NCBI GenBank assembly: GCA_008632985.1
Contig: QPGO01000062.1
Location: forward strand, 186,001 to 250,000
Direction of reading: 5' to 3'
Origin: Psammoneis japonica
Taxonomy: Eukaryota
DNA length: 64,000 nt
Positions 1-56,668 of the stretch are shown one piece after another. Positions within the stretch are counted from its first letter, which is position 1. Each line of letters opens with the position of its first letter. A program made the position numbers and the translations under genes. The notes beneath the pieces were generated by a model, which ran no database searches, was not told the DNA's origin, and saw only the letters and a list, made by a program, of their open reading frames with translations.

Positions 1-1045
1 GCCTGATTGGCGTTGGCGAAGGAGGGGAGCACACAGAGCAGAGAGTGAGAAAAAGCGCTGCCTTGGCAAAGGATGTGTCAAGTGCACTGTCTTCCACAAA
101 CAGGATGGGCTGAAGACTGCTCTGTCACAACCACCTCTGACTCCCCTCTTCTGGAGGCATGCCGCCTTTGCTTCTTTGTCCCTTGTGTCGACGTCGTCCA
201 GCGCCAAGCACAGCTGGCATGGTGCTGTCTCAGGAGCCTGACTTGAGCATCAGCATTCTCCATGGAAGGCTGCATTGGCTGTGTCAAAGACATTCTCAGA
301 GGGCTGGCTTGCTCAGTTGTTAGAGCTTTTGCAGGTTTTTCTGAAATGGCGACATTGCAGGCAGCGGGAACAGCAGCACCAGGGATGCTGGGCTTGGACC
401 TTCACTTGAGGCCAGCACTGGCAACCCACCTCATGGCTGCACCCAGTGCCATTTTCAGTTTGAGCAAGAACACTCTGCAGATGTTTGTTTGAACAATTTG
501 GGAAGCAGCAGGCACACCCAGATTGTTGTCCATGATGAGCGATCGCTTGTTGTGACTGTGGAGACAACACCCAGCACCCCCTCCTCCAGACAAGCAATCT
601 CAGCTTGATCATCACATTGGGAGAATCAGGCAATTTTCATTTTCCAACCAATGCCTGCTGTGCACATGGCTTCAGGATGCAGAACAGGATAGTTGGGTGC
701 AGAGCCCCCATTGTTGCCAGCTGCAGCTGTCAAGAGGAGGGTGCCATTGTCACAGACTTTCTTGTGCTGTTTCAGAATGATTTGTTGTGATCCTCTCCAC
801 CAAGACTCACACTTTTGACATTGGCTCTCGCGCCCACCATTCACAGCACAGCTTTCAAGAGCATCAAGCATGCAAGACTCAGCTCCTTCCCCCCTTTTCC
901 AATGTGGAATTTGAGTGGTTTCACATTGCCCATGACACCAGCAATGCCTTGTGATTCTTGCCACCAATGGCGTCTGTTGAGACAGACAGGAAAAAGAACA
1001 GCCTTCTTGCTCTTTGAAAAGGTGCAGAGTCCAACAGAGGCATTC
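1..1045. repeat. TA/CG-depleted degenerate block 1 (probable decayed repeat or TE; continues beyond window start)
   Basis: Only about 2 TA dinucleotides seen in approx. 1 kb; few CG; TG/CA-rich. Overlapping Tyr-poor, Cys/His-rich ORFs in all frames. TA reappears abruptly at about 1048. Confidence 0.7.
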
Positions 1046-1190
1046 CGTACAAAGCCAAATTATTTTTATTAAACATTCAAAAGCTGCAATCCAGCAGTGC
1101 ACACAAGCAGAGAAACAGTCCATACAAAAATCAAAGTTTACTTTATACACTGTACAACATAGCTCATTTATTCATTCCCGTTACTCAATC

Positions 1191-2818: not shown

Positions 2819-4019
2819 TCATCCAACCAATTTCTTTTCATTGTCACGAGCATTCCAAACAAACCCAATGTCATCGAGTCTCATCTTTCTCCGAATCGAC
2901 AACTTTTGTTGCCGCGACCGCTGGACATTGACCCACGCGGCCAGCTTGACATTTTCACTACACGTCACGTTACAATGGCCGTGCTTTTCTTTGTACTGAC
3001 AAAGCTGTTCAAACATGTTGTTCCATGTTTCACGAAGACCCCAGACAAAGCCAATCGAATCGAGTCGTTCCCGGCGTTCGTCACTGAGCGTGTCTCGTGC
3101 TTGACGTTGGGTCTGGACCCAATTTCCCAATTTAGGATCCAATGGGTATTTGGTCGGCACTCGACAATCACCGTGGAGTGCCTTGTACTGTTCAAGGAGA
3201 CAAAACATGGTATCCCACGCGTCCTTGTCGCGCACGCACCATTCAAATCCGAGAGCTTGCAAACTCTTGAAACGAAGAGAAGACATGCAATTCTTTTTGC
3301 GATTGCGTCTCTGACGTTCGACCCAACGGCCCAATTTGGGATCAGCCTTGTAGCGATGTGGAACCAAGCAATTGCCGTGCTCTTTTTGGTATTGAACCTG
3401 CGAGATGATTGTGTATCGAGAGGTGAGTAAAAGAAAAGTACGGGATCAAGAGCTGTGTAGAGTATGAACTTACCAATCTCTGATACATGTCATACCACGA
3501 TTCGTGTAGATAGCCTCTTCCTTTTTCGTGATTTTGAATGGTATGCATCTCGGAGGATGGCATGATACCCGGCTGCTGCTGCAGCTCTTCAGAAGGAGGA
3601 GTCGAGGCTACCGATTGCGGGAGGGAAGAGGCGGTTGCTGCAAGATTGAGCCGTTCCGCGCCGAGAACTCTGGGTGTTTGTGCTGGTAAAACCCCTGGAA
3701 ATGCGAGTAGTGGTGGTGGTGGCGGTGGTTGAGAGGTAGCAAGGGCAAGTGTTGGAGACAAGGAGGCAAGTGTCGGTGTTGTCGCCAGAGCCGCCAACGG
3801 AGCATACGGTGCTAGTACAACAGGCGGCGGCGGTGGTGGTTGTTGGAGAGCAGAACCCAGTACAGACAGAGCCGCAAGATCCTGCTGCTCCTTTTGTCGG
3901 CGAAGGATCCGTAGGGCTAGAATTCGCTTTCTAGCTAGTTCAGCTTCGGAACCCTGCATGAGATTGTCGATTCCTTGAAAGTTCGGAGAAACTATTGGGG
4001 CAGGGCCATCAATGGCCAT
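2819..4019 (-). CDS. Helicase-associated (HA) domain repeat protein, paralog 2; exons 4019-3474 and 3397-2819
   Basis: Three HA repeats closely similar to paralog 1. A GTAAGT...TCGCAG intron (3473-3398) joins YQRL|VQYQKEHGNCLVP. Confidence 0.9.
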
Positions 4020-4310
4020 TTATACAAAATCGTTGGAGCTTATCTCGCTCGATACAAGTTAACTCAGATTGGAATAGATACACACTGTTCAAACAAAACT
4101 GTATGCTGCTTGGAGCTGGATCGTCTTTGATTCATTCAAACTTTTTCGTTTTTTGCCTACTTGCTGCTGTGAAACAAAAGTGCGTCAAAAAACAAGATCA
4201 GAAAAAGAATGCCCCGATGAAAAATCGTGAGCGGAAGTCGGGTAAAGATTTCATGCTCGTGGCTGGTTAACGACAAGCCCATAGCCCAATCTCTTTGTCT
4301 GACTTCGAGC

Positions 4311-4434
4311 CAAAGTAAGCTAAATGGTTAGTGTAAATCGTTAAGTGTCATTTCCACTTCGACACAAAGAAAGCTAAATGGTTAGTGTAAATCGTTAAGT
4401 GTCATTTCCACTTCCATACAAAGACAGCTAAATG
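4311..4434. repeat. 54-bp tandem repeat, about 2.3 copies
   Basis: Unit caaag.aagctaaatggttagtgtaaatcgttaagtgtcatttccacttc... starts at 4311, 4365 and 4419 (partial). Confidence 0.9.
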
Positions 4435-4869
4435 CTTAACGGTAGTGGTCAGATTTCAAAATCTGAGCAATACAGAAATGTCAATGATGAATAAGGATTT
4501 TAGATTGCTTCTGCCGTAAATATCATTACGCCAATGCCACTAATGAATACACAAATGAATTTGTATTCCATCCTTTTCCTGAACTTTGATCTATCGGCAT
4601 TTTCGATACGAGTGCTCGACGCGATGACAATGAGGCATGCTTGTATGTGTCATGGCCATAAGCTGTGAGGCGTACCGTCACATTTGGATTGAACTCGGGG
4701 ATCTTGATGTCGAAAGTAGCCATTTGTTTGACATTCGTGATTTTTCATCGCCCACAAACTGGGATTTCAACTGAGTCGAGTTGATGTTGGACGTGTTTCA
4801 AAGCACTGCGTTTGATGAAACAATTGAGGGCTCTGGAATTATGGCATTTTATGCCATGGAGACTTAAAA

Positions 4870-6930
4870 CAGCAAATGGGTTGACAATCAAGCAGTGATC
4901 GGGTTTGCCAACATTTCCAAAAATGTGACAACAAAAGTTGCATCACTCAACAACCAACAACATCTCAAGAGATGGAAACAAGAAAAGTGACTCCTCTTTG
5001 CACTTGAATTAAAAGAGACAACAATGCACAACAAACATTTGAGAAGGACAAGAAGCTCTTGAATGCATGGAACCAGAAGAGAGTCAATGAATCGCTCTTG
5101 TTTTGAACCTCTTGACCTGTTCTGTCCATGATGGTGGTTGGCTGAAAGGTTGGTGGTGGTTTTTTTGTGTGACTTGCAGCTTGAGGCATGTTGATGCATG
5201 AACACATGGCCCATGTGTGGTGTCACCTTTGGAAAGTGCCACTTGTGGAGCTTGGGTGGACAACTCTCTGTGCTCAAGCTTTGTCCGCCAAATGCTCCAT
5301 CAAAGTCCAGATGCTGCCACATCCCACCCGACCATTGACACAAAACAGTTCTTGCAAAATGTTGTTGCCTGTTTCCCTCTTCCTCTGCAGAGCAGCCCTC
5401 TTGGTGACAGTGCTGCCCACATGCCAGAATGTGCTCAAGAATGCTTTCCATTTTGCCAGCAAAGATGCCCAACGCGGGGCTGTGTGGGCTCGAATCTCTC
5501 TCAAGACAAGCTGACATTTGTGCCTGGCACTGGCGGCAATGCTCAGCCCTCCTTCCTGTTTGACTTCCCAGGAGTGTGCCCAGATCTCCTGCGTGCTGAG
5601 TGGCTCAACCACAAGAGTCGCTGTCTTTGTCAGTTTTGTCAGCAGGATGTGCCAAGGCTGCTCTGGCCATGTGTGCGCAAGGACAGCTGCGACAGCGCTT
5701 TCTGCTGTCAGCAAAGAGTGTGAGCTGGCTGGACTGCCCAACCCCACACTTCACAGCTCCTTGGCAGTCACTCCAAATCAAGTGCCAACTTGGGGTCAAC
5801 CGCACCTGGCTGGTTGCAATGCAAAGACAGCTGTGGCAGCACTTTGTGACAACAAAGAGAGTGCGAGCTGGCTGGGCTCCCAACCCCACACTTCACAGCC
5901 CCTCAGCACTGGCTCCCAATCAAATGCCAACTTGGGGCCAATGGCTGTGAAGCCATCATTGCAAATCCCTGTGCCTGCCCCCTCACACAGCTTTGCACAG
6001 GGTCAACATGTGTGGCCTTTGCAAGATGGGCCCTGGCTGGCTGCTGGCTCCTCAGCCACACGGCTTGCACAACAAGCCACCAAAACACAGAGCACTGTGG
6101 GGTGAGTGCAGCACAGCCCAAACAAGCACACCATGCTGAGATCACCCAGAGTTGGCTGCTGTCCTGGGGCTCCATTCAAAGCTGAGCTGGGCTGCTTGGC
6201 TCCTTGGTGTGCAGCACATGCTTGGCATCACATTCTTGTTGCCAAGCAGCCGCATGGCATGTGCCCACCATTTGTGCCTGCAACAGCGACCCCAGCCACA
6301 AAGAAGCCAACAAAAAGTTGAACCTGGTTTTGTGGTTGAAGAGTGAAGAAACTGTGAGTGAAGTTTGGTTCAAGATTTGTTGGCAATGCCAAGTGGGCAA
6401 CCAAAGAGAGGCGCCAAAAATGGCTGTTCTTGCTCATTTCTCAAGAGGAGCTTGCGCTCATGATGCAGGGTCTGAAGCAAGCACCAGCCAAGACAACAGT
6501 TTTTTTCTCTCTGCCCCACTTAAAACACAGCCTTTGAGTCAATGTGGTGCTCCTTCAACAACTCACGCACACTGGGAAGAGCAGCTGGAGCCAGGGCAGC
6601 TGGCCTGGCAGGGCTTGGCTGACACCCAAGCTGGGATGCTCAGCCTGGTGGCACACACTCAGTGCCACATTGTCACCCTCCTGCAACTGCAATGTGCCCC
6701 ACTCTTTGCACCTGCAGCAACCACCCTGGATCAAAAGAAGCCAGTGCAACTCTGGCCATGGTTGCATGGTCAATTGTGTGTGTGTGTTCAACGGTTGATT
6801 CCCCTCTTTTTTTCTCTTTTCCTTTAACCGGCCACGAACATGAAAAAATTGCCGGAAGTCGCAGTTCGCAATGTCAAGGACGCTTTGACGTGGCACGATC
6901 AGCACGATCCGTTCGATTCAATCGCCAGAC
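4870..6930. repeat. TA/CG-depleted degenerate block 2 (probable decayed repeat or TE)
   Basis: Residual TA is nearly all in TTAA; strong TG/CA excess; six-frame ORFs lacking Tyr. Contains an internal direct repeat. Confidence 0.7.
5682..5941. repeat. Diverged direct repeat, period about 144 bp (5682-5799 and 5826-5941)
   Basis: Shared gacagctg...gagctggctgg...cccaaccccacacttcacagc...tgccaacttgggg; differences include CG/TG and CG/CA. Confidence 0.85.
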
Positions 6931-8335
6931 CTTATTTCTCCGTGAAGGTTTCTCCGAAATGTATCTTTTCACGGAAGACGACCAGACGAAGTGGGATGCG
7001 CGAAAGATATTTCCACGTGTCTCCTACCGCCCCCCGAGGAAGTCATACGAACATGTCATTGCTCTTTACGTGCTACAGACAAGTTCGAAATACTCTGTTT
7101 TGTCTTTTACTGTAGGTCCGTTACTCAAGGTGGTACGGGTACAAAAGTGTGCCAGATTCTACGCACGTGGAGCTTAGCATGTTTTCTACACAAATCGCCA
7201 AAGTCGGCTCGCCAACTTGAACCCTCTCCAGGACGATGGAAACTTTGACATTTCACATGACAAAGTGTTTGGACTACTTAATTACACTCCCCTCGACTTG
7301 TTTAAATGAAGAGAAGTTACAAGTTTCCGTGGGTTTCTCGTTTTGCATGGCTCTTTAAAACTCGAACGTCGCGATGCATGAAGAATGATTAAGCAGAGGG
7401 CGCACCACAGTTCTCGGCCCGTTCATTTTCTACGTGGCCTGGCACAACCCAAATCTGTTTAGATTCAGTGCATTTCGCCCTGCAGAACAGTTTTTGGGAG
7501 TGTTTTCTGCCTCGCGACGCAAAATGACACGCAAAACAACACGGCGGACAATGGCATTTCGCCGATTTCAAAAGTGCAGTTGTTTCTGAAGCACTTTGCA
7601 GTGTGCTCTCAATGGAGTGTCACACGTCATGGCATGAGGCGTGTGACAAGCTCAAGAGCACACAGGTTCATGTGGGTGGCTGATGGTGAAATTTTGAGCT
7701 GAAGATTGGTGTTGACACAGCTGATTTTGTTGCATCAAAACGCAACTTGTGCATCACCATTCATTCTGTGCATTTCGTTGAGTGCTCGTGCGTTCACATT
7801 CTTTCAACTTGCACACATGTTGTCTTTCCTCATTGTTGTTTTGTTCTGCAGGGTCTCCCTTGCCATGAGACATCCCTGAGAGAGAAGTGCTTCCTTTGAA
7901 TGTCGCTTCTACATCTGGGATGCCAACAATCTGGGTCTGACCGTCTGCCATGATCTGGGCATTTCTTGACTTTAATGCCAGATTGTTGTCAACTTACAAG
8001 CCAATTCTCTCCTCAAATGTAACATGAGAACTGCGCAAGTTTGCAAGCCTCCAAAACCCCAATTGCTTCCCACTTTCAAGTGTGGTCATTCCTTTCACAC
8101 AATGCAGACCTGCGCCCCAATTGACATTTGGGGTTTCTCGTTCTTTTAACACAAATGTTGCTGCACATGATCCACCCTCCTTTTCTGCCAACTCGTCCTG
8201 CATTTTGTCTCTTTGCTGTGCCGTTTTCAAATCCAATTCCCAATTGCCACACGTTGTTGCATCCAAACCGCATTGCACAATGTTTTTTTTTTAATTTTCA
8301 CTCATCTAGATTTTGTTGTTTGTTTCAAATTACGT

Positions 8336-9469
8336 TCACACACCAGTTTGGTTGGTGGCCATTGCGCCATTTGCTGCCGCTCCGTTGCCTGCAGCCACCG
8401 CCTGCAATGGCAGGTCCTCTCCCATTGGCGCCGCCCATCCTTCCTCTCTCTCCTTTCTTTTTTCCTCTCTTTTGCATTTCTTGTTTTCCTCCTGAGACAA
8501 GTTTGTCTTCTCCCGCCTTCTCTCCTTGAACCATGCACCGAATCCCTGGTTGTTCTCTCTGTCTTTCACCACCCACTGACGTGGATCATTGTGCTTCTTG
8601 ATCCCCTCCTTGCTCCATCCTTGGTTCCTCTTTGCCGACTCCCCCGCTGCCTGTGCTGTGCACTTTGCAGGAGCAGCATCTTTCACAGTTGGCTTTCTTC
8701 TCCTTGCAACATTTTCTTCCTTTTCCAATTTCTCTGCTGTGTCCTGCACCTTGTTGCAGCAGTTCAAGCACACTGGCAGAGCAAACGCCTCCGACGAAAC
8801 TGAAAGCCATTCCTGAAGCATGTCGGTTGTGCTTCTGCCAAACTGCACTTGTCCCACCACCGTCAGCACCACAGTTTCCAAGAACCACACGTGTGTGTCC
8901 TTGTCATTTCTTCCCTTTGTCAAGTCTTTGCAATCCACCAGCGATCCCTCTAAAGCAGCAACTGCACAGATGATGTCAAAGGAAGAGACACTCATCCCGT
9001 CAGACAATCGCCTCTGGCACAATCACCGGCACGCACACATCTGCTTGCCTGTCATTCTCCTCCCAATGTTGTCCTGCACATTGTTCCTCTTTCGGTTGAG
9101 TTTGGTCCTGAACACCTCTTTGCATTCATCCCAGAACTTCTCCGGTGAAGACGCCATGCTCCTCAACTCCTGCAGAACCAATTTCATGCAATCTCCTCCC
9201 ACAGCGAGTTCATGATCGAAGATTGTGAACTTGCGACATGGCCAAACACTCTCATTGACAACCTTGGTCAACATCGATGCCATCAATTTCTTGCCCACCG
9301 CAGGTGCACGATCCAACACAAGACATCCCTCTGTGGGAGTCACCACCGAACTTGAATCGCCACCTGCATGCTGGAATCTGTTCAGCTCCCCATGTTCGTT
9401 TCTTTGTGCATGCAGCAAGGCCGCCACCGCAGGACTCATGGTGACTTCATGTGACACCACACAGATCAA
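8336..9469 (-). pseudogene. Decayed repeat-associated protein with S[D/S]EAFAL...KYT...GWSxEG..YN.L...V..DR motifs; intron 9048-8962
   Basis: ORFs 9023-9469 and 8336-9022 join in frame through an 87-nt intron with a GCAAGC donor and TGCAG acceptor. From memory, the motif set resembles a multicopy diatom hypothetical family found in DNA-transposon-like repeats; this was not verified by search. Confidence 0.6.
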
Positions 9470-10162
9470 TCCAATGATTGTGTCAGTTCATCAGCAACTC
9501 TTTGTCATGTCCTTTCTCAATCTCACTTGCCGCTGGAAGTTGCACTTCCTCCCTCCGCTGCTCCTGTGAGAACCGCATCCTCCATCATTTTTTACCTTCC
9601 CAATGGCTTCCTCTTGTTTGGAACTTCCGTCCTTTCCTGTCGCTTTGTGAAAGGTCAGTTGCAAAAAGAGTGCACTTTTGCATGTGATTTTCTTGGTTTT
9701 GTTGTTGCTCGTGTGTCCTCTCTTGATTCAAACAGGTCTTTGTGTCATTTTTGAGTGCTCATCCCCAACCCCATGTTTGCATTTCTGTCAACGTTTCACT
9801 GTTTTGAATTGTGCACCTTTGTCAGCCAATCCAACACACCAATGAAGATTGCCACATCATTTGGGTCAATGCCAAACAATGTGTCACATCTGCTTGTGTT
9901 AATGCGTGCATTGCGCTTCCTTCTGGATGCAACATCTGCCTCATTTTGTGTGCCAAGTCGTGTCAAACCTCCCATTTGTTGTCCCTGTCTTAACAGGTCA
10001 TTCCCTCTACTTCCCCGACACCACATTTGTCCATTTGCTCTCTCTGTTGCCCAAATTTTCCAATCCACTTTAATGTCCACTGAAGTGTGTCATTGTCACT
10101 GAGATGTGGTTGTCGTGAGTCGTTCCCATTGTGGGAACACGTGTTCCCTCCACTGCAATCAC

Positions 10163-10864
10163 ATGCCGCCAATTGATGGTCAAATTGGTCATTTTGCTGG
10201 TGGTGGTGTGGAATCACACGGTGGTGCGGCAAGCTTTGCCTTCTCCGCCAAGGTCATTTGTAACCCCGCTCTCTTTGCGGCACAAATTCGAAGCCGTTTT
10301 AATTTCCTCGGCATTGGTGGTGGTGTTGGCGGTTTTGCGATTGCCTGTCGTCTGCTTGTTCCTGCCTGCAATGCCTGCAGCATCGAGTTCCACCGTCCCC
10401 GTCATGATCTTGGCTCTCAGTGGTGCAATGCCATGTGGCACAACAATGCCAGTCGCTTTCCGACCCTGATCAATCAGGACTTCCTCTCCGAAGATGATGC
10501 TGTGCGTCAGTTGCACCGTCTGAACAACTTAAAGATTTTCTTCAACAACTGCAATGGGCGAATGCTTTTTGACAACAACGCGACACAGAACCAACTCGAG
10601 GAGATGCTGTCCAACGAGTGTCCTGAAGGCACTGTTGTCATTTCATTGGACATGATGTTTTGTGTTGATGCGCACAAATGGAGGGATGGAGCATTCTTTG
10701 TTCCTGCCCATCCAGACGATCTGTCATGGGGAGGCGGTGTCGACAGGCACCCACTTCACAAGCACACCAAGAAAAGAGACGATGCCGTGGAGACCAGGCA
10801 TTCCACTGGGAACAACCTGGGGTCTGACATCAAACGTAAATTCAAGCCTGCCAAAAGTGGGTGA
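10163..10864 (+). pseudogene. Decayed DOT1-like class I SAM-dependent methyltransferase
   Basis: Motifs in DOT1 order: ES[H<-Y]G, FL[G]IGGGVG (motif I), SIE, QDFL, IFFNN, PEGTVVISLD, LSW...PL[H]K[H]TK. No Tyr in more than 230 aa. Confidence 0.65.
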
Positions 10865-11019
10865 CTTTGCAATTCCACTTTGTTTGCAATGTAACTGTCA
10901 TCCATGCAAGCAATGCATTGTCAATTGGCCCTTTACACATGCCTGCTTTGTGCCCACATTAACTTGCCACTTCGCTGGTTTTGTGTTCCAACACACACTT
11001 GTTCACACGCTTGCTGTGT

Positions 11020-12240
11020 TCACACGCTCACCATGTCAAAATTGTGGACCAGACATGCCATGTTCCTTCGACTCAAATTCGTTTTGTCAGGCAAAGCTCG
11101 GTGCAACATTCTTGCATCAAAAACAAATGCAGTGCCTGCTTCTCCAACCAGCAATTGTTTTTCCAAACCCAACCCAACCAATTGTCTTTCGCGTTCCTTC
11201 TCATTCAATGTCACCTCACAACTGTCTGGCCACATCTCCACTGCACCATTGTGCTCCGTTGTGTCACCGAGGAACAGAAACATGGTGAAAATTTTGTTGC
11301 CAGGCAACAATTTTGTTTCCACACAATCGCGATGAATTTCCCCCTTTGACCAGAAGTTGGATCTTGAACTTGAAGCAGGAGCGTTTGCTGCTGTGTGCCG
11401 GGATGTCTTTCTGCTTGAATCACCTGCCAGGGGAAAGCCAGGTGCAGCATGCATGCAGACAAAAGGTTGTTTTTGTCATGCCCTTTGTGACATTAAAAGG
11501 CTGTGACACGTCGCCGTGATGCATTGGCTCTTGTCAGTGGCTGTGTGTTGCACTCCTCCCCATGTGTCACGCGTCCATGCGGCTCTTCACTAACGTGCAC
11601 TGACACTGCACGGTTTTGGCGGAACAGTGTGGGCACGTGCGAAGGAACACACAGAACTGCACAGAGTTTTGCGCGTTCGACAGTGATCAACGTTGCTGCA
11701 GACAACTCCCACTCAGGGTTTCGAACCCCTGGCCTCCTGCCCAGTGGTTGCGATGTGCCACTCCGCCATGAATTCATGGTGCAGTGTGCATGCAGACAAA
11801 AGGTTGTTTTTGTCACGCCCTTTGTGACATTTAAAGGCTGCAACATGTCGCCGTGACACATCAACTCTTGTCAGTGGCTGTGTGTTGCACAGGAATTGGC
11901 TCCAGCATTTTTCTGCCAACCCAGTGCCTTCCGCCTTTTCCTTTTTGTCAATGGCGAACTCACCAACAAAACGGCATCCTTCCTTTTCTCCCTTCCTGCT
12001 TGGTGCCTTGTTTGCAAGTGTTGTCATCTTGTTGAGCAGGGGTGGTGGTGTTTTGAATTTTTGCAAGTGGCCTTTTTTTCTTTCCTGGTGCTCTCTTTCT
12101 TTGGACACCGCCTTCTTGCTCTTGACGACATGAGGTTTCATTTTGCCTGGGTGTGTTGGTAACTTGCCATGTTTCTGGCATGACATTGTCGGCCAACGGG
12201 CAAATTTCCGGCATCCGTTCACAGAACACTTCCGCGCCAT
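11020..12240 (-). pseudogene. Decayed 2OG-Fe(II) dioxygenase (PhyH-like) with N-terminal C-x4-C...C-x2-H zinc ribbon; disrupted by an internal duplication and a frameshift
   Basis: IHRD...TMFLFLGDTTE.NGAVEMWPDS...GEAGTAFVFDARMLHRA...SRR gives the HxD...H...R facial triad and 2OG-binding Arg. N-terminus is MARKCSVNGCRKFARWPTMSCQKHG. Confidence 0.7.
11441..11890. repeat. 113-bp direct repeats (11441-11553 and 11778-11890) flanking 224 bp
   Basis: Colinear copies ggtgcag...ctgtgtgttgcac; differences are mostly CA<->TG and CG<->TG. Confidence 0.92.
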
Positions 12241-12372
12241 TCTCTGAAAATGCCTGTTCTGCCAAATCAAATGGTGCCTGGTCTTTTTCTTTCAGTGGAA
12301 CAGACCCAATCCAGTGAAAGTCCACACCCATCGCTTTCCAACAAAAATGGCTTTCTCGCCAAACAGCTGTTG

Positions 12373-12507
12373 CCAACGGCAGCCCATCTGTTCGTGTGCA
12401 CCACGGGTGTTTTTTTTGTAAATGGTCCCGTGTGATGTTTTGGCAACGGCAGTCTGTCTGTCGGGTGCACCACAGACGTTTTTTTGTAAACAGTCACGTG
12501 TGATGTG
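12373..12507. repeat. Approx. 70-bp tandem duplication
   Basis: caacggcag...tgcaccac...ttttttgtaaa..gtc.cgtgtgatgt occurs twice; includes CA<->TG swaps. Confidence 0.85.
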
Positions 12508-13184
12508 ATCTTCGTCGATCCTGTTCACTGAATGATCTCATTGAATGGGTCATCCCAGCCATCTCAAAAGCACAGAAAACAATTTTGTTGCTCACAATCC
12601 TGCCAGTGATGATGTGAGACATTTTCACATCACCACAGCGGCAGACACAAAGCAAAAGCTTCTGTCCACCGCACATTCCGCACCACAAACAAACTGTTGC
12701 TTTTTTGGCAATGCACGTGTCTGTCAACAGAGCAATTTGGTGTCACTTTTTTATTGTTACAACCATTTCTTAACAAAGTGATTCCACATCACTTTTCTGT
12801 TGTCAAACATGTGTGTTGACAGAAGAATTTGGGCATCAGTTTTTTGTCAATGCACACATCTGGCAATTGACACCTTTGGTGCCACTTTTTTACTCACACA
12901 CTTGGTGCTAGCCTGCACAGCATCGTGACATGAGGTGCATCTCCCACAGCAAACCACATTCTCCCGAATCTTGTCCAAGTTGCTGATCAACTCATGTTGA
13001 GCAGCAAACAGATGTCGTTTGGGTGACTCTGTTTCTTGTGTTCCGCAGCCTTGTCATTCCCTTTGCAAAACAAAAAAAAGAATCACACCCAATCCCTTGC
13101 CTGTCAGGCCACATTGCCGAAATGGAACCAACAAATCTCTTTTCCGTCCAATGCATTGCACTTCTCTCCCAACGACATTCCACC

Positions 13185-14161
13185 TCACTCAACCTGCAGT
13201 GTTGACCAACAATCCATCTGGGCGTTGTCCTCATTGGGTGCGACATCACGCGGTGGGCCAAGAGGGTTGTGTTGATCGAGGGAGGAAACAGGATCTTCTG
13301 TCGGACAGGAAATTGAGGGGGGGCCACAACTGCCATCGTGATGGTCGGCTCCAATGAACTCAGGAACATCCACAGGACTGTCCTCTCCAAGGGCGGACAC
13401 ACCATCATCTGCAAACAAAACAAATCGGCGGACATTTTGGGAGGCTGCACCAGCGGCAGCAGCATTGGCGGCTGAACACAATCGACCAGAGCGTCTGACG
13501 AAGGGTGGGCGCAGTCCACTTCCGGCAGAGGGAGGACAAGCTGGAGAAGAATTGTCCGTTGGTGTGGGAGGAGATGGAGCTGGATTCCAAAGGACTTCGG
13601 GGAGGGGAGGAGGGGGTTCATCGTCGGAGAAGCCAAACCCAGCAGGATCATCATGGTCGTCCAGTGACTCATCATGGTCATCGTCTGGAGGGGGAAGTGC
13701 GTGGGCGGCAGCAGAAGATGTGGCACGCAGGCAAAGGGACATTTCCTCCTTTTCATGGCAGGGCAAGTGCTTCTGTAGATGAAGGGCAATGTTGGAAAAG
13801 GGAACACGGCAATGGGGACATTTGGGTTTGTTGGTGTTGGATCCAAGGGAGCCGACGGAGACAGAATCCAGAGGATGAGAGGAAAGAGATGTTCCGCCGG
13901 ATGAAGAAGACAACTGGGTTGTGTGGCGCAAAACTGTGTCAATGGGGGATGGAGACCAGATGCTGCGGTGCAGTGCCGAGACAGGTGACACTGCACATTG
14001 TTTTCAGAGTCAAATCCACGTTGTCCGCAACGAGGACAACCAAAAGACTTGGTGGAAACGGCGGAATGGAGGCAGCCAGTTGTGATGTGCCTGCTGAGGC
14101 CATGTTCGGAAAAGAAACCAGTTCGTTTGCACCATGGACAAACAAGACCATCAGAAGACAT
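13185..14161 (-). pseudogene. Decayed multi-C2H2-like zinc-finger protein with acidic/Pro-rich region (frameshifted)
   Basis: CPWCKRTGFFSEHGLSRHITTGC, CPRCGQRGFDSENNVQCHLSRHC and CPHCRVPFSNIALHLQKH lie across two frames, followed by a DDDHDESLDD...PPPP region. Confidence 0.6.
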
Positions 14162-15705
14162 GGCCCATGCACATGGATGAAGAAGTTGAGAAGAGAATCG
14201 AAAGGAAAGAGTGGGCGCAGCAACAATCACTTGGGGATGTGGTGAGGGTGGAAACATGGAGATGCAATGTGCGGATGGACGGGAAGGAAGGATGGAATGG
14301 GCAGGGAGAGAAAATTGAGAAAACAATTAGAATCTCGATTGACGGACACAGGCGGCAATTTTGATCCAGAAAGTTGATTGACACACAATTCAGAAATTAA
14401 AATGGCGCCAAACACACACACAAGGCTTGTCGGATGGGGGGGCAAACATTTAAATTGAGGAATGTGGATGTTTGATGTTGAACATTTCAGAAAAGCTGAC
14501 TTGACAAATCAGCACGATCTTGGATTAAAGGGAGAAAATGTTGGGTTTTATTTCAAGAAATCTTGACGGCCAGTGCGACACCTGGATTGTTGGTGTCCCA
14601 GATGCACCTTGCAACGGCCACGGCAGTCTGACGACAAGTCCAAGTCACAGACGCAGCATCCGGGTGGCTTCACAATAAATGTAGAAGCTTGGGTCTGTGG
14701 TGTCTGAAGATGTTCAAGCTCTTGACAGCTCAGATTTGTCGCAGAGCAATTTTGCCGTGCATTTGGCGTGCATCCAAAAGGTGATGCGGAGTTTTGTTCG
14801 ACAGAGAAACGCACCATGGCAGTTGTGATGGTTTGCATTGAGTCTCACAGCTGCAAGGTGGTTTGTGACATAGAAACATGTGACTTGTTTGCCTCATTTG
14901 CCAAGCCTGTGCAACACATTTGGGGGTGAAAGTCAGGGCAAATCATCATGCACAGTGCCAAGTCTCCAAAAACAGCACAAGAGTGCAAGCCCAAAAGAAA
15001 AACCAGCTTTGCAACTTGTCATTAGAGTGCAGAGCTTATTTTTCTGGGGCATCATGTCTCCATTGTTTTTGTGGAGTGAACATTCACTGGAGTTGTTGCC
15101 GCCAACGTGCGAGTTCGCCTTGACAACATGTTGCACTGCATTCTGAGATTTTGGAATGTGAAAAAACAACTTGCATTTGCATCATTCTATCATGACAGAA
15201 ATGTGTGAGCTGTCCCTGGCCCTTTTGGAGAAATCGGGTGAGTGAAAGAGGAGCTACAGAAAGATGCGGACGACGCCATTTTGATGGATTTTGAGATTCT
15301 CGTCAGCGGTGGGGTGTCGCGAGGAGTCGTGATGGAGTGCCGCTTCGTGTTTTTGTACTGCGTCTATGTAGGAATGTACGTGCTTGGCTCTCGTGTAGTT
15401 TCTACGTAAAAAGTGTACCAGGCGATCTCTGGACCGCCCTCTTAATCATGCTATGGAACACTTATCGATCGCAAGTTTCTCTCCAGATCTTTGCTAAGTA
15501 ACACCTTGAATACAATATATATTAAAAGCTTCATAATGCGCAATGTCTGGAAGTCATTCTTATTTAAGTAGTGTTGAATTACATACAGCGCCCATGGATG
15601 GTGCGTGGAACCTTCCGCGCCGCACTGATCCCGGCGTGGGCGGCCGGCCGTCCCATTATTTTTCCGTCTGTCATCTTCCGAGCCTAATGGTCTTGGACTC
15701 CCGTT

Positions 15706-16035
15706 CTCTACTCTCTACTCTAGAGTAGCTAGCTAGAGTAGAGAGTAGAGAGAGAGAGAGAGAGAGCTAGTAGCTCTACTGTACTCTATCTACTCTAGTA
15801 GTAGCTACTCTAGCTAGCTATCTACTAGAGAGTAGGCCCTACTCTCTGCCGGTACTCTCTCTCTCTCTCTCTAGAGAGAGAGAGAGAGAGTAGAGTGTAA
15901 ATACCGTAGACGGACTCTCTTCTCTTTCATACGGTTCAAAGATGCTGTCTACGGTACCTAAGGTAGAGATAGACAGGTCTCGCGAGGTGTCCGGTATTCT
16001 CTCTCTTTAAGAGAGAGTAACCTCTCTAGAGAGTA
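15706..16035. repeat. CTAG/TAGAG/(AG)n-(CT)n low-complexity self-complementary island
   Basis: Dense ctag, tagag and ctcta words; perfect palindrome CTACTCTAGAGTAG at 15715-15728. Confidence 0.85.
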
Positions 16036-16216
16036 GAGCACAGCGTAGTCTCTTGCGCGACAAGGAGCAAACCAATTTTGTAACCGACCTGCCTCTTGCA
16101 CTAGTCGATACCCAAAACATCCAGCTAGAGATGATAGAGTTAGGTAGCTTCATTTTCATGTTATGATTCTTAAAAAATATCTCAAGTGTGTCATGAACTC
16201 AAGATTGTGCAAAACT

Positions 16217-19200
16217 TTAGCAGCCGATTCGAACAGGCTCAGTCTTCTTCTCCGCTTCCTCGGCACAAGGACTAGCCGCCTTTTCAGACGGAGGCGATGG
16301 AGTGCTCGCTTTTGACGAAAACGGTGCACCATCCACCTTGGCATCGCCCTCTGGAGCAGCCTTTTTGAGAACCACTGCATTCGTGCCGCCGCTTCCCTCC
16401 GTTTCCTTTATTGCTTGCGCGCAGTCCTCTTCAGCGGCGTTTTCTGGCTCGCTCTGCCCACTACTTCCAAGGTCCTCAATCAGTGCCGCGTCATCTTCCA
16501 ACTTTGGAAACTTGAGTCGAGGTGGTATATCCTTGGGAACCTCCGAGACGGACCCCATCTCCGGACTCTTTTCGTCTCCACTGCCCAGAATGGTGGGACT
16601 CACCGTGGCCTCGCCAAGCTCTGCTAGCTCTGCAACGGCGGGAGAGAGTGGGGCAGCTTCTGCTAAGGCAAGCGCGGCAGCAACTCCATCGTGTGACTGT
16701 GCAACGGCGGCGGCGACGCTTGTCGAGACGGTTGACGGATTCAAAGCAACGGCCTGAAGCGGTTCCGACGGAGCTGCAGTCACACTAGTCGAAGGCTCTA
16801 TTGATACAGTTGCAGACGTTGGCTGCTTTGCTACCACAGAAGTAGCAATTGGCGCATGCGGAGCAGTCAACTGTGTCGTGGGTGCAGTAGCAGGTATTGA
16901 TGTGGGGGTTCCGGTTACTTGGGGCAGAGCATTTGCTGTCGGCATCGAAGGAGTAGCTGTCTCTGTTGCAGGCTGTTTTGGCAATGCAACTGCTGTCTTT
17001 CCCGGCATATTGAGAGCGGCAGGAGCCGTTCTTGCCGCCTTCGCTGCCGCAAGAATGGTTGAGGGAGGCGCTGCCGGTACGTCGGTGGGCAAACTCGTGG
17101 TATTCGGAGCCACTGCTGGCGCTTTTGCCCGCGGATAAGTCGAAGCAGGAGTCGCTGTTGATGCGTTCACAGCTGATATGGATGCAGGTACTTTGGAGGT
17201 TGCCATCGGCGTCGCGCGCGACAGCGCCGTCGAAACCGGTTGCTTGGTGGCTGAGAGCGGTCTACTCCCGCTGACAACTGGCTTCTTGACGGCGTTAATG
17301 GCAGCGTTGGCTCGAGCTTTCGCAACTGCAGCAGAAGGTGGCGTCCAGTTCTTATGCAATGCTGCCTTCGATGACGGCACGGCGCTCTTCTTGTGGTGAG
17401 CTGACCGGGAAGTTGGTCTCGAAGCGGCGGCAGCTGCTCTCGCCTTGGCCGCCGCTGCTGCTTTCATGGCAGCAACCATTCGAGCTCGGTGTTTCTTTCT
17501 CCTGAAATCGTTAAGGCCGGTAAGGGCTTTCAGATTCGGTGAGAGGTGCTCCTTCGGTGTACAGATACCACACTGCTGCGGTCGTGGGCACGCTACAAGG
17601 TGATAAAGTAGATGCTTTACCTTTCGACACCATGGAAATGGACAGACGTCGAACGTTGAGGTGGTTCCTGGGCAATCTCGAACGTGAAGCATGAGAAATT
17701 TGGTGCTGTGACACACATCTCGATGGCGAGCTGACTTGTGTCTGCGACAGTTCAAAATCAGCAAATGAAAAAGGCTAGGTGAGAGACTGAAGAGGACCAA
17801 ATTCCAAATGCATGAAGATACTGACCTGCCTGGGCACGTCGAGGCATGAGAGATTAGAGTCAACAGGCGAGCAGACTCATTTTCTGTAAGAGTCGGGCCT
17901 GTATATTCTCGTCCGAACCGTTCCTTCTCTGCTTCCTCCCCGGGAGACAAAGAGAACAAATCCGAGTCGTCGCTATCCATTGAGTCGTCCGAGAGGTGGC
18001 CAATATCAGAATCATCACTGAAATCCGAGCCCGAGTCAGAATCGCTACTGAGTTTTGGGAACTTGCTGCTCACAACAGGTGCCGACACAGCCAAGGATGG
18101 CGATATATGCGTAGGATTAAGGTGCATCACGCCAATACCGGCGCCTGCACCAGAATTATTGCCGCCGCTTGTATCCTCGGCATGAGCCAACAAAGCCGGG
18201 TGGTACTCAATGGCATTTGCGGGTGATGTAATGTCTACTCGAGGGACCTGAGTCTTGCGGCACTTTGGGCAGTCGTGAGATGTCAGAGTCCACCATGGGT
18301 TGGCTTCACAAGTCGAACTGTATGTTTCACTACACAGCGCACAAATGTACTCCACCGTACGCGGCCCTTTCTTCTTCCCAGCGTTCTTGTTCGCGATGGC
18401 TCCTTTTGTAACCTTTTTGGTTGCACTTGGTGGAGCACCACCTTTGTTTGGTAACTGAGAAGCCTGAACAGCTTGCTGCTGTAGCAACACTTGTCTCTGC
18501 CGTTCTATTTCAAGCCGCCGCGCATCACGGCGTTTCTGCTTTCGCTTCCTCTTCTTGCGTAATCTCTTCCGCTCCTCGTCCGTAAGTATAAAATCATCAT
18601 GTCGTCTCTTGCTTGATGCAGCGCTGGCCATTGCTGCGTTCATTTTTGCCGCATGGCGCTTCATCTCCTTTGTAGAGGGTAAGGCCATGGTGTCAGATGG
18701 CGGTGGATGCTGAGGACCAGTGACAGCTCTTGGCGATACAGAGGAAGTTCCAACGGCCTTCTGGGCAGCAGCTGCAGTCTGCTGCACTTTCTGGCGAGCA
18801 ACTGTCGATAACAACGCTGGGTCCTCCACCACATACCGTGGGCACCAACTGCTGCAGACACACTGGAATGAACTTGCTTACTACCAGGGGCCATACCTGC
18901 GTAAAGTATCTTTCGTTTCTTGATTTCTTCGTCGGATTCCAGCGCTGACCCCTCGGCAGCAGTAGCCTGAAGACGACTCTTGGAACCAAGAGTCGATCCA
19001 TGAAGCTTTTGCGTGAGCGACGAGCCACCACCCTTTAGAGGCTTCCCAAACTGCGACGAGCCCATGTCTCTCTCTAGCGGTTCCTCAGCTGCAGCTCTTA
19101 TTGCTTCGGCTTGTTTTCGTCTTTGTTCAGCGGCGGCAGCAAAGGTCCCCTTTCCCTTTTCTACCGCAGGCTGCAACATCCCCCGACGTGCTGCTGGCAT

Positions 19201-24230: not shown

Positions 24231-24751
24231 AAAAGCGATTGTCACAAAACGTCAAGATTAAAGAATAGAGAACCGTACATACCGCCATGAGAGCTCCATT
24301 ACGCAACAAACAGTTTGGTACGAATGCTACTAGATAGTTCCATAGGGCAGATGAATAGGATTCCACTATTGATTGCTTGATGATGATTCATTCTTCAGCG
24401 TTACGCAACAAAAAGTTTGGCATGAATGCTGCATTGGATTCCGCTACGTTCCTCTCTATTTAGTGCTAGCGACTTGATTGATTATTCTTTCAGCTGTCTC
24501 GTTCTTTACCTCTATTATTGCATGCCAGCTACAGTAAAGCGTAGTAGCCCGCCATGCTTTGGACCTCAGCTGAGTCTTGCTTCGTCCGTGCGAATTTCAA
24601 ATCGAGTCCCGCTTCTCGTGACCGCTTTCCAAGGCCCGCCAGCCGCGTGTTTCAAAATCACGAAGAGCCGTTGCTCATCTCAGAGCTCTGCCGTTGTCGA
24701 ATCACTTTCTTGCCGTGTCCAAAACCATTGCATCAAAACCACATCACCACC

Positions 24752-28134: not shown

Positions 28135-28392
28135 CACTCCCAGCTTGGGAGGTCTGTAATGGGAGATGATGTTGTGAGCGAGAAAGAAGCGGAACAAGCG
28201 AGGTTCAACAGTCATAAACGTCTCGGAAAGCACGCACTCTACTTCAAGTGATTTCATAAGACGCGAATAATGGAAAAATATGTCCTTTTAACATTCTGGA
28301 TATAAATATAATCCCTGATTCAATCGCCGACTGGCATCAACGATAAAAGACATCTTCAATCTCGCTCTCTTACTCTCTAAAAAATGTATCAT

Positions 28393-28510
28393 TAGCTCTA
28401 TCTACTTCTCACTCCCGGCTTGGGAGGTCTGTAATTGATAGCTACTAGCTACGGTAGTAGCTACTAGTAGCATGGTACTCCTAGCTCTAGAGTACCTCTA
28501 CTCTAGAGGT
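28393..28510. repeat. CTAG/TAG-rich intergenic island
   Basis: gctactagct...ctactagtag...ctagctctagag...ctctactctagag. Confidence 0.7.
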
Positions 28511-28598
28511 CCTCGTCTCAGGTCTCTAAACCTAACCTGTTAGACGATTACCTCCCTACTGTGACTAGGGCTACCAGATAATCTGGTATGAGCTATCT

Positions 28599-40143: not shown

Positions 40144-40424
40144 ACAAGTAGTGACGAGCAAGGAGATTTACATGCAAAAATGAAGTGTGCCCGCGGATAG
40201 CGTGGGAGTTTATGTGTAGGCGGTCGTTGTCGGCTCGAGCTTCTCGATGTTCAAGCCATCAAAGATGCGCCAGTTACCGAAAATAGCAAAATGTATAACC
40301 AAATGTTTTCTTTTGATTTCTAACGAATCTTAATGGAGACTCTGAACTCTAGCATTTAGCTGAACTTGGCTGAACCTCTTATTTCCTGATGAGAGACCGA
40401 TGAGAGATGAGAAAAAGTGAACGG

Positions 40425-40625
40425 CTACTCTTTCTCTACCAGCTAGCTAGCTAGCTCTACTACTCTCTCTAGAGCTAGAGCTAGCTCTCCTACCTCTACT
40501 CTCTCTAGAGAGAGTAGCTCTGCAGTACTCTACCTCTAGCTAGAGCTACTCTCTAGAGCTAGAGCTACTCTCTAGAGCTAGAGCTACTCTAGAGTAGAGA
40601 GTAGATACCGGTAGAGTAGAATAGA
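40425..40625. repeat. CTAG/TAGAG island
   Basis: Repeated ctagagctactctctagag; palindrome CTACTCTAGAGTAG at 40584-40597. Confidence 0.85.
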
Positions 40626-40706
40626 GATGACGCGGTTTTCAGTCTGGCCGCTATGCGCTCGGTCCGCGTGCGCTTCCACCTTCCACGTTGAACTATTCGA
40701 ATTTTC

Positions 40707-54291: not shown

Positions 54292-54669
54292 GAGAGACTT
54301 TTCGCACAAATACCATTTTGGAAAAAGGCGACACTCCGCAAGATATATATGCACCTGTGCTTGTGTTGTGGCATTTGGTTGCTCATTGCATATATCAAGC
54401 ATTTGTACTTCACGTGTCGTGTGCTGTGTTGGACACTCGCCGACAATATAAAGTAGTAACTTGATTACCGTTCCACGATATCTACATGCTACTAGAGAGT
54501 GTTGAGGAGTTCAAAAGCATTCCAGTGAGAGCCACAAGAAAGTATAGCGGAGTTGGCATCAGCAGTGTTATACCTACTGGCAGTAGATGCAGTAATCGGG
54601 TCCAATTTGGATTCTGTAAACCCATTAGAACTCGAAGGAGACGTCACAGATGCAATAGAAAGCATGGGA

Positions 54670-56375
54670 GCTGTCTCGCACGATCGCCGGGGCGTGGAGC
54701 ATCTTGTGACCGCATCGATTCTTCGAATGAGGGAGGTCGACCAGGCCCTTTTTGAATCGCATGTGCTTGACAATCTTGACCTGCGATGTCTCAAGATCTT
54801 TCCAAGTGTCATTCTTGGTGGCAGCAGACAAACAACCAAAGAAGTTGCCCTTCTTGCAGTTGGGGCGCAACTTGTTGCGGCGGCGACCGGGTTCTTGGAC
54901 CCAAACACAACAACCAATTGCAATGTTCTCAGCAGTCTTGGCAGCAGGGGATGCATCTTGATCCACAGATGCAACAGTCACACCAGAATCCCAGGTGGAT
55001 GTGTGGCAGCAGTGTCCACAGCAGTGGTGGGTGGTGGAGGCCCCAATGATGAACTGTGCAGCACTGCAACAAGATCACCTGCAAGCACCCAAGAGTTTTG
55101 TTTCAGCCAAATTGCACACATCTTTGGAAGTGACAGTCACGTTGGTGCCTCCAGAATGTGTGCTGACAGCCACAGTGGGTGATGCAGTTTTGAGAAGCAG
55201 CCAAACACAACAAGCAGCTTGAAGCACTCCATGCGTTCCTGCAGGTGCACCATCATCAGAGGAGCGGAGGGCTTTTTACCCTTGTCTGTGGACTTGTTGT
55301 CTTTGTTGAACACATCAGCAGTGATGTCATCCCAGTTCTCATGCACTGGTTGGGGTCCTGGTCAGAAGTGAAGGTGTGGCAGTTTCCAGCAGGAACAAAA
55401 ATTGCATCTTCTCCAGCATCGATTGCCTTGGTCATTGCTGCTTTCTGGAGAGTGCAGATCAACTCAGATGGGCATTGTAGATTCCAGGGGCATGGGACAT
55501 GGAGGGCTGCTTTGTCCATCATGGGTTCACCATGCAGTTATTGGTGGTGGTCACAGCAAGTGGCATGATCAGCCATTTAAAGAGTTGCTGGCACAGAATC
55601 TCAACAACATCAACATCAAGACTTGGCTGCACAGAGTCATCTAGAATGACTGTGTCCAGAGTTTTTTCCAAGTGCTGGCTGTTCAGGCAAGCACGTGCAT
55701 CTTTGTGAGCAGGGTGAAGCCCAAATTCAAAGATTGTGGTGGGCTTTGTCATCATCAAATTGACAGCTTTGGTTGACTTGGACATTGCGGGTGCATGTGA
55801 AAGATGCTGCACAGAGCTCTGGTGTGTGCCCTGCAGTGGCCCTGCAATCACAGTTGGCAGGAAAATGCGTGAGATGAAGACTGAGTTTTCTCAAAAATTG
55901 AGCTCCGCAGCTCAAATGCTGCTGGCATGGGTGCTCTGATGGCAGAAAATGGTGCAAGAGCACTCACAACCCAACAGACAATGGTTTGCAAGAACAGTGT
56001 GACACATGCCAGCAGGGCTGGGACAGCAACAACAACTTGGTGCTGGCCAAAAAGAAAGCGCATGTCTGCCAGTTGTTTTTTGGGGTGCCAAGCCTCTGGC
56101 ACTCGGACCTGCGACAAACTTGAGCCTTCTCTGTGTCCTGCTGCAAGTGCAAGGTTCACTTCCTCAAGCATTTGTGCTGGCAACCTCAGAGCCTTTTCAG
56201 CATTGTTTCATTTTTCCAGCTTTGTTGAGACAGGAACGCCTCGATCAGCGTGACTGGACCGGACTGCGCCACAGCATTGGCACGCATTGTCCTGTTGTCA
56301 GAAACCAAGCTCTCCCGTTTCCTGATGCCAGGAAGACGCGTCATGCAAACTCCTTGGGACCGTTGGGGTGAATGT
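54670..56375. repeat. TA/CG-depleted degenerate block 5
   Basis: TA nearly absent; contains a copia fragment and a copy of the block-4 repeat at its right edge. Confidence 0.72.
54730..54920 (-). mobile_element. Ty1/copia polyprotein fragment (post-integrase SH3-like region)
   Basis: GCCVWVQEPGRRRNKLRPNCKKGNFFGCL...WKDLETSQVKIVKHMRFKKG matches the copia consensus FGC.V.V...R.KL......G.FLGY.......YD..T..V.....V.F.E; conserved GY appears as GC. Confidence 0.75.
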
Positions 56376-56668
56376 TTGCTACCTCGAGATGCCGTGGCCC
56401 ACCTGTGAGATGGGATAGAGAGTGCAGCAAATGACCGTTGTATGACGTGTCGGTTAGACGACTGCGCCGCTCGAGATCACGTCTTTTGTCGCTCGCGATG
56501 TCAGCGGGTCCGGGTCCATTTCAGTCACGCCGGTGACTACAGTAATGGGTGAGCATGTTACATCACTGCATGCAAGGATTTATGATGAAGATAAACTAGT
56601 GTTATGAAACTCTATGGCTCGAAACGATTAAGCATCCCCGGGATTAAGTTTAGCACCGCTTTTACGTC

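Follow-up and report, generated by a model that had tools for sequence, protein, structure and literature searches.

Why does a gene-like stretch of algal DNA contain almost no TA dinucleotide, and which process removed it? The question is raised by a two-exon open reading frame (ORF) on the minus strand (8339..9487) of the 64,000-nt stretch of contig QPGO01000062.1 analysed here, which is referred to throughout as the window. The initial annotation had proposed that TA was converted to TG or CA within this gene. The analysis described below indicates, with good confidence, that this ORF represents a transposon gene that has lost its function, located in a nest of repeated mobile elements, where a region-specific process at the level of DNA has approached completion. 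The process changes TpA to TpG or CpA, that is, A to G on either strand. For the gene, the consequences were the replacement of Tyr codons by Cys or His codons, of CTA by CCA and of the intron donor GTAAGTA by GCAAGCA, together with the disappearance of TAA and TAG stops.

The two-exon gene and its shortage of TA

The gene consists of three parts:
9049..9487, minus strand: exon 1 (open frame) of a hypermutated gene of unknown family, with tblastn matches to metagenome loci L001, L003, L004, L005 and L006 (E 4e-15 to 2e-7) and an in-frame joint with exon 2
8962..9048, minus strand: phase-1 intron of 87 nt containing 0 TA, with donor GCAAGCAG and acceptor TGTGCAG, found at the same codon in L001, L003 and L006
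8339..8961, minus strand: exon 2, with the motifs EAFALPVCLNCC and KHNDP, 6 protein homologues (E 2.5e-9 to 4.4e-5) and 6 homologous metagenome loci (E 2e-28 to 7e-10)

With the intron removed, exon 1 (9487..9049) is in frame with exon 2 (8961..8339), and the product of 354 codons ends in a TGA stop. In the 8791-8771 region the minus strand reads GAG GCG TTT GCT CTG CCA GTG TGC TTG AAC TGC TGC, translated as EAFALPVCLNCC, and at 8596-8582 it reads AAG CAC AAT GAT CCA, translated as KHNDP. These codons, and the 9048-8962 intron joining the two exons, are as they were first described. The TA shortage goes beyond chance: the span 8560-9050 contains a single TA, whereas the background rate of the window itself predicts 19.9 (Poisson P = 4.7e-8). 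The spliced ORF encodes 0 Tyr, 11 Cys and 7 His, compared with 16 Tyr, 2 Cys and 2 His in the 320 codons of its closest homologue, L001.

For the intact homologues, nothing credible was found in Pfam, a PDB profile search with their alignment gave no match (E >= 0.39), and an AlphaFold model of L001 exon 2 gave no Foldseek match in the PDB at E <= 0.001. This model is predicted to be all-helical (predicted local distance difference test score 78.4), with both flagged motifs inside confident helices, in agreement with the earlier remark that the peptides read as helices once TA is restored.

Homologues and the direction of mutation

Homologues were obtained as 6 metagenome proteins and 6 metagenome loci, 5 of the loci also encoding exon 1. 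The TA content of the loci is ordinary, the ratio of observed to expected counts (O/E) being 0.55-0.97. Opposite the AFALPVCLNCCNK and GIKKHNDPR of the window, L001 reads AFAILAYENYYDN and GIDRYNELF. TAC TAT stands opposite TGC TGC in all three loci with spliced DNA, and the two columns of this Cys pair hold Tyr in 8 of 9 and 9 of 9 homologues. The column of the CCA (Pro) codon is occupied by Leu or a similar residue in the homologues and by CTA in L003, while KHNDP aligns with RYNEL in L001, where CAC in the window faces TAC. The intron lies at the same codon and in the same phase in L001, L003 and L006, with the donors GTAAGTAG, GTAAGTGG and GTATGTAC, respectively; two TA to CA changes lead from the L001 donor GTAAGTAG to the GCAAGCAG of the window. 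At the 8 columns with consensus Tyr, the window has V, F, A, H, F, C, C and F, and Tyr at none. Four columns hold Tyr in 7 or more of the 9 homologues, and there the window reads H, C, C and F.

When the positions at which homologues have TA were threaded on the codons, the window retained TA at 0 of 114 and had TG or CA at 51 of 114. Between one homologue and another, 44 of 175 positions kept TA and 50 had TG or CA, so that the excess of TG and CA in the window has a Fisher p of 0.0056. The three codon-level comparisons share ancestry and are not independent. Summed over them, the coding strand has 32 TG and 19 CA at these positions, which upholds the proposal that both products occur on one strand. 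The direction from TA to TG or CA is likewise borne out, homologues with normal TA reading TAC or TAT, and CTA, where the window has TGC or CAC, and CCA. Homologues that natively carry Cys, His or Pro together with a GC donor had been named beforehand as the contrary outcome; Tyr at the two Cys columns and a non-GC donor were found instead. Regarding the statement that host introns start with GTAAGT or GTGAGT, a single host donor, that of the sigma-factor gene, was inspected by eye, and it is GTGAGT; the statement stands for this one donor.

The conserved motifs of the family include SSEAFA and KRNQGWS, and the contigs of L001, L003 and L006, which share the phase-1 intron at the same codon, have a GC content of 0.40-0.48. 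Because this intron is kept across contigs of differing GC, the family is considered eukaryotic and spread over several planktonic lineages. An IMG/VR match (L007) was rejected as a homologue, since the likeness is due to chance, is limited to a short motif and lies in a non-coding frame of a contig that looks phage-like.

TA-free blocks across the window

The shortage of TA is not confined to the gene. Seven segments with a total of 16,253 nt contain 57 TA and 350 CG, whereas about 660 and about 902, respectively, would be expected:
1..1048: block A, TA-free and CG-poor, extending past the start of the window (TA 2 versus 43 expected, CG 16 versus 58)
5010..6825: block B, TA-free and CG-poor (TA 2 versus 74 expected, CG 21 versus 101), with high summed depth in sequencing run X1
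7460..7910: block C, left part of an outer TA-free repeat hosting a transposon insertion (TA O/E 0.03), joined to 14606 onward in contigs
7911..14605: block D, a DNA transposon with terminal inverted repeats (TIRs) (37 TA versus 272 expected, TA O/E 0.08)
14606..15023: segment C2, right part of the outer TA-free repeat (3 TA versus 17 expected), defined by the contig joint
48962..53061: block E, TA-free and CG-poor (TA 6 versus 166 expected, CG 35 versus 227)
54656..56380: block F, TA-free and CG-poor, with a copia-like remnant (TA 6 versus 70 expected)

The TA O/E is 0.02-0.08 in the blocks versus 0.59 in the rest of the window. CA and TG rise to an O/E of 1.6-2.0, versus about 1.17 in the background, and no other dinucleotide is shifted comparably. 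The ends of the blocks are sharp, normal TA density being regained within tens of bases, and the host genes between them have a TA O/E of about 0.5-0.6. These values bear on the possibility that no targeting is involved and that the blocks are old junk at the equilibrium of a genome-wide neutral spectrum disfavouring TA and CG. Although the background TA O/E of 0.59 is already low and TA and CG losses rise together across most blocks, unique intergenic stretches reach a TA O/E of up to 0.88-0.97 (15001-16000 and 28001-29000), which such a spectrum would not be expected to leave beside sharply bounded blocks.

The loss of CG is weaker and more variable than that of TA, and tends to rise with it across the blocks. 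Its simplest reading is the decay of methylated CpG: ordinary deamination of 5-methylcytosine in silenced, methylated repeats would account for the loss of one half to six sevenths of CpG to TpG or CpA. The blocks resemble methylated transposons in this respect, with a CG O/E of 0.14-0.66 versus 0.98 in the background and a gain of TG and CA. However, CpG decay gives no account of the loss of TA, which is stronger and more uniform.

The few TA that remain in the blocks are not randomly placed. A 5' T or a 3' A accompanies 43 of the 55 residual sites, versus 697 of the 1,934 background sites (p = 5.6e-10); TTAA contributes 19 of the 55. Apparent survival, for which the denominator is a proxy for the ancestral count, is 0.073 in TYRA, 0.026-0.028 in GTAA or TTAC and at most 0.02 elsewhere. 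TA within TTAA, TTA or TAA is thus spared to some degree. An enzyme that disfavours an A after the target A would produce this pattern, both strands being disfavoured in TTAA.

The blocks are full of long open frames on both strands, because a change of TA to TG or CA creates no new stop and turns TAA and TAG into sense codons or TGA. As TAA and TAG stops vanish in this way, long open frames are here no sign of function. A Pfam search over the 143 ORFs of at least 70 aa in the blocks gave just two matches, both below threshold.

The idea that the blocks are copies of one another was rejected within the window. The single likeness between different TA-free blocks, E and F, covers 135 nt at 81% identity (49216-49350 versus 56305-56434) and flanks a host gene with a BTB domain (53029-54288). 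A TA-free stretch of 463 nt at the 5' end of a host ORF (24545-25008) was also set aside; the signature is absent there (CG O/E 1.11, CA and TG 1.1-1.2), which indicates another cause. An assembly gap of 283 N is located at 40707-40989, in a neighbourhood that is rich in TA and low in GC (0.40 over 40001-42000).

A DNA transposon altered in place

The flagged gene lies in block D, the boundaries of which were established from contigs of runs X1 and X2. These contigs join 7910 straight to 14606, and 7911-14605 is therefore an insertion of 6,695 bp into another TA-free repeat. The ends of the insertion are as follows:
7912..7936, plus strand: left TIR, matching the right arm at 21 of 25 bases, the 4 mismatches forming two TG/CA double differences
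14580..14604, minus strand: right TIR of 25 nt, pairing with 7912..7936
7910..7911: left copy of the target-site duplication (TSD), TA; the joined (empty-site) form reads T plus A at the junction
14605..14606: right copy of the TSD, now CA (TA to CA)

These features identify block D as a TIR DNA transposon that duplicated its TA target, and one of the two copies has itself turned to CA. Because the intron, the TIRs and the duplication all carry the scars, the action took place on DNA, in place and on both strands. It proceeded in the chromosome through coding and non-coding parts alike (exons, intron, TIRs and target duplication), and ends sharply where unique host DNA begins.

The same scars weigh on the alternative that double-stranded transposon transcripts were hyperedited from A to I at the RNA level by an ADAR-like enzyme, the changes being fixed by reverse transcription. 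A preference for a 5' U and an action on both strands do resemble ADAR hyperediting, and block F holds what is probably a retroelement of copia type. A route through edited mRNA is nevertheless excluded, because intron, TIRs and target duplication were never part of a spliced, reverse-transcribed RNA, while block D is a TIR DNA transposon in which one host-derived copy of the duplication is scarred as well. Furthermore, internal duplicates resolved the same sites differently after they had been duplicated. ADARs are a metazoan family. RNA-level editing is consequently regarded as very improbable.

The internal duplicates are of further value in estimating rates. A TG-versus-CA double difference between two copies is the product of two independent resolutions of one ancestral TA (or CG), and is otherwise rare. 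The most conspicuous pair is the following:
11441..11553 and 11778..11890: pair of internal direct repeats of 113 nt, 89% identical, in a segment of very high copy number

Between the two copies there are 11 transitions and a single transversion; 4 CA/TG double differences and 2 CG/TG differences are among them. In the five duplicate pairs inside blocks, 8 CA/TG doubles were counted beside 50 transitions and 23 transversions, compared with 1 double, 53 transitions and 68 transversions in the four pairs outside. Beyond the 4 CA/TG and 2 CG/TG sites, the 113-nt copies show 2 other differences, and the TIRs show 0. Since duplicates and TIRs are almost without other substitutions, the rate specific to TA lies far above the general rate, contrary to what the neutral equilibrium described above predicts, and that explanation is quite improbable. 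Within the bin 11506-11922, the summed depth in X1 (about 85,000) is by far the highest, and the segment 11441-11922 may represent a very abundant short element nested in the transposon.

It might also be supposed that selection made the elements free of TA and CG, escape from a nuclease or from TA-targeting insertions being one conceivable advantage. Such adaptive avoidance is scarcely credible: conserved Tyr and a canonical donor have been lost, the TIRs have ceased to be identical, the 143 block ORFs are almost without recognisable Pfam domains, and unrelated elements share the TA-free state.

No transposase (DDE/D) domain was found by Pfam in any block ORF of at least 70 aa. An assignment of 7911-14605 to Tc1/mariner, which the TA duplication and the TIRs would fit, was not retained, since this domain was not found, and no superfamily is assigned. 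A 444-aa ORF (12995-14326, minus strand) had no homologue in a word-based protein search. Two further ORFs are candidate cargo:
10103..10861, plus strand: DOT1-like methyltransferase ORF, weakly assigned, the nearest Atlas clusters having a DOT1 domain (score 0.96, 205-208 of 256 shared features)
11023..11475, minus strand: ORF resembling a 2-oxoglutarate (2OG)-Fe(II) oxygenase or PhyH, with matches below the Pfam cut-offs (PhyH E 2.8e-4, 21.6 bits against a cut-off of 22; 2OG-FeII_Oxy_3 E 1.8e-3)

The DOT1-like label that the first of these ORFs had received is retained as far as look-alikes by protein language model go; no Pfam match at E <= 0.1, including DOT1, and no PDB sequence match was obtained for it. 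Its look-alikes in the Atlas include diatom, haptophyte and giant-virus clusters. By these weak assignments, both ORFs are of types that modify chromatin or nucleic acids.

A replicate in a copia-like fragment

Block F offers a comparison in an element that is probably of a different class:
54628..55074, minus strand: hypermutated, putative copia-type polymerase fragment (integrase C-terminal SH3-like region), with a Pfam SH3_retrovirus match at E 2.7e-5 (24.4 bits against a cut-off of 27)

The fragment has 74 phmmer matches at E <= 1e-3, over about 65 residues, and a word-based search among longer proteins found no homologue. At column 81 the window has C, where the 74 homologues include Y 34, F 26, C 7 and H 3; the GY to GC change noticed initially is thereby supported, and column 81 reads as an independent replicate of the loss of Tyr. 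Column 92, at which the window has K, is uninformative (Y 42, F 14, C 8 and H 6 in the 74 homologues). It was also observed that 11 of the 74 copia-like library proteins (98-251 aa) contain 0 Tyr and 7-12% Cys plus His; these are P0025, P0027, P0029, P0032, P0033, P0039, P0042, P0059, P0065, P0071 and P0072. They are probably translations of other TA-free copies, and this composition in 11 of 74 relatives is the reason for placing other hypermutated copies in public protein sets.

Copy number and evidence from reads

Run X1 is the only public run with the region; its platform is not on record, and it is possibly the source of the assembly itself. Over 4000-16500 it yields 5,667 contigs with 85-100% identity to the window. 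Three pieces have unique depth (about 60); all are located outside the TA-free blocks and show 0 differences. Summed over the blocks, the depth reaches thousands, which is not to be read as a copy number. The blocks covered by the reads (B, C and D) are high-copy repeats. Differences among the copies amount to 559 transitions versus 117 transversions. Among 40 differences listed, with 647 further ones beyond them, 11 have TA in other copies versus CA or TG in the window, and 6 have CG in other copies, with 3 in the opposite direction.

These data are relevant to the concern that modified bases at TA and CG in silenced repeats were miscalled as TG or CA, so that the signature would be an artefact of sequencing or assembly. 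Base modifications cause systematic miscalls in long reads, and X1, with no platform on record, is possibly the assembly's own data. On the other hand, the k-mer contigs of X1 contain 51% of the sampled words of 6800-16500, and the unique-depth pieces there cover about 1,290 nt only; much of the TA-free sequence is thus present verbatim in X1. Moreover, the thousands of contigs represent diverged copies separated by transitions, which is what genuine independent mutation should produce, and in Bigelowiella natans this signature was recorded with Illumina data among mutations arising de novo (bioRxiv 10.64898/2026.01.13.699255, main text). An artefact is considered extremely unlikely, although the platform of the sole supporting run is not recorded.

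In the repeat at about 4270-5010, next to block B, the summed depth is about 5000, and a contig of 211 nt (4685-4895) reaches a depth of 3043 with 0 differences. Tandem units of 54 nt are located at 4302-4438 within this repeat.

Chemistry and comparison with known systems

The closest parallel is found in B. natans. In its mutation-accumulation lines, 230 of 231 mutations in an integrated nucleocytoplasmic large DNA virus (NCLDV) and a virophage were A to G or T to C, all 230 on TpA. Its genome contains 124 clusters that are poor in TpA and rich in CpA and TpG, in which transposase and reverse-transcriptase domains, as well as unannotated ORFs, are over-represented, and an ADAT2-like deaminase was proposed (Mettrop et al., bioRxiv 10.64898/2026.01.13.699255, main text). 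The likeness extends, as far as the main text of the preprint describes that system, to the TpA dinucleotide, to TpG and CpA as products according to strand, and to an effect limited to mobile or foreign DNA, the rest of the host genome being normal. In the present window, changes of TpA to TpG or CpA are seen by comparison with homologues and between TIRs, duplicates and TSD copies, with no events observed directly, and they are confined to seven sharp-edged segments, though the repeat at about 4270-5010 is undepleted.

Differences from that account should also be noted. The TA O/E is 0.45 in the NCLDV region of B. natans, whereas it is near saturation here (0.02-0.08), and TA makes up 6.0% of dinucleotides there versus 4.06% in the background here. 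The targets there are integrated NCLDV and virophage DNA; here they are transposons of high copy number from both classes, a TIR DNA transposon among them. De novo events were seen there, while the process here is known from its footprint in the sequence. Co-depletion of CpG and sparing of TTAA occur here, and neither is mentioned in the main text of the preprint (0 mentions of CpG). Full-text literature searches returned no description of the TpA to TpG/CpA signature in diatoms or in any organism besides B. natans.

The host here also appears to be different, probably a diatom-like stramenopile alga with long, intron-poor genes. Those in the window include a nuclear sigma-70 factor, HA-domain proteins and TMEM43, for which the nearest Atlas cluster is mostly Bacillariophyta. 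The presequence of the sigma factor has a Phe directly after a signal-peptide-like stretch, an arrangement typical of complex plastids of the red lineage.

Repeat-induced point mutation (RIP) of ascomycete fungi works on CpA, which it turns into TpA, with new TA and stop codons as the result. The present process is like RIP in acting on DNA by transitions alone at a specific dinucleotide, in saturating repeats while leaving unique genes, and in pseudogenising transposons. It differs in that TpA is lost rather than gained: TA is destroyed, and the TpA changes remove existing TAA and TAG stops without introducing new ones. Clustered deaminase-type transitions that disable selfish elements are likewise a feature of ADAR and APOBEC systems, and the preference for a 5' U or T is like that of ADAR. 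However, those enzymes act on RNA or on single-stranded replication intermediates, and an ADAR-type route would change only sequence that is transcribed and reverse-transcribed, in contrast to the in-place alteration of the intron, TIRs and TSD of a DNA transposon observed here.

Regarding the chemistry, the changes would probably arise through a deaminase of TadA/ADAT type, as was proposed for B. natans, acting on those adenines in DNA that follow a T. The same outcome could be reached otherwise, if the thymine of TpA were modified, for example to 5-hydroxymethyluracil (5hmU) through a 2OG-Fe(II) dioxygenase, and if mispairing or faulty repair then gave T to C with no deamination of adenine. 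At a palindromic TpA, T to C and A to G are indistinguishable from sequence. In dinoflagellate DNA, 5hmU prefers TpA, and the transposon itself contains an oxygenase-like ORF (11023-11475, E 2.8e-4). That match lies below the Pfam cut-offs, however, and is of the PhyH or prolyl-hydroxylase type, with no TET or JBP match at E <= 0.1; the ORF is cargo of a dead element and not a host gene. In addition, adenosine deaminases of ADAR type usually prefer a T directly 5' of the A that they edit (bioRxiv 10.64898/2026.01.13.699255, main text). Modification of thymine is thus considered unlikely.

The role of adenine deamination in these repeats would probably be genome defence against repeats or foreign DNA. 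Several observations weigh against this interpretation as a whole. At the level of the gene, the window has C or H at 3 of the 8 consensus-Tyr columns only, with F at 3, V at 1 and A at 1. The first Cys of VC stands opposite Tyr in only 2 of 9 homologues and opposite Leu in 7 of 9, the His of KHNDP is opposite Phe in 7 of 8 homologues and opposite Tyr only in L001, and at the THVW column, which is one of the Tyr columns, His is native to L006. The codon-level excess of TG and CA is moderate (45% versus 29%). Among the 40 listed differences between copies (647 further ones exist), 20 fall outside CA, TG, TA and CG contexts, and the run that supplied them may be the assembly's own data, its platform being unrecorded. 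CpG is depleted together with TpA, and loss of both by one process or by two fits equally. The high-copy stretch at about 4270-5010 keeps normal TA, and not every repeat is therefore affected; this stretch may be a young or protected repeat that escaped the process. Finally, we infer the targeting and the chemistry from one window of 64 kb.

Implications

On balance, TpA-directed hypermutation of mobile or foreign DNA is observed here at saturation, in what is probably a second eukaryotic lineage and as a stronger example than the first. A more far-reaching proposal can be put forward only tentatively, with a little less than even confidence: that diatom-like algae possess a RIP-like defence which erases TpA from transposons of both classes to saturation, by adenine deamination in double-stranded chromosomal DNA and with sparing of TTAA, and that the system is thus old and widespread in lineages of stramenopiles, alveolates and Rhizaria. 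The signature is known from Bigelowiella (Rhizaria) as well; if the proposal is true, it would not be an oddity of chlorarachniophytes, and Tyr-free pseudo-proteins would be left throughout public gene catalogues. For annotation, it should be noted that hypermutated repeats yield long spurious ORFs and Tyr-free "proteins", which gene predictors will call as genes. The search for the enzyme is narrowed by three features: TTAA is partly spared, both strands are acted upon, and the changes go together with CpG decay and so, probably, with methylated chromatin. A natural adenine deaminase acting on double-stranded DNA would be of interest for base-editing research. A second algal lineage, probably unrelated to the first, and ordinary transposons as targets suggest a general mechanism of eukaryotic genome defence, like fungal RIP with the opposite chemistry.

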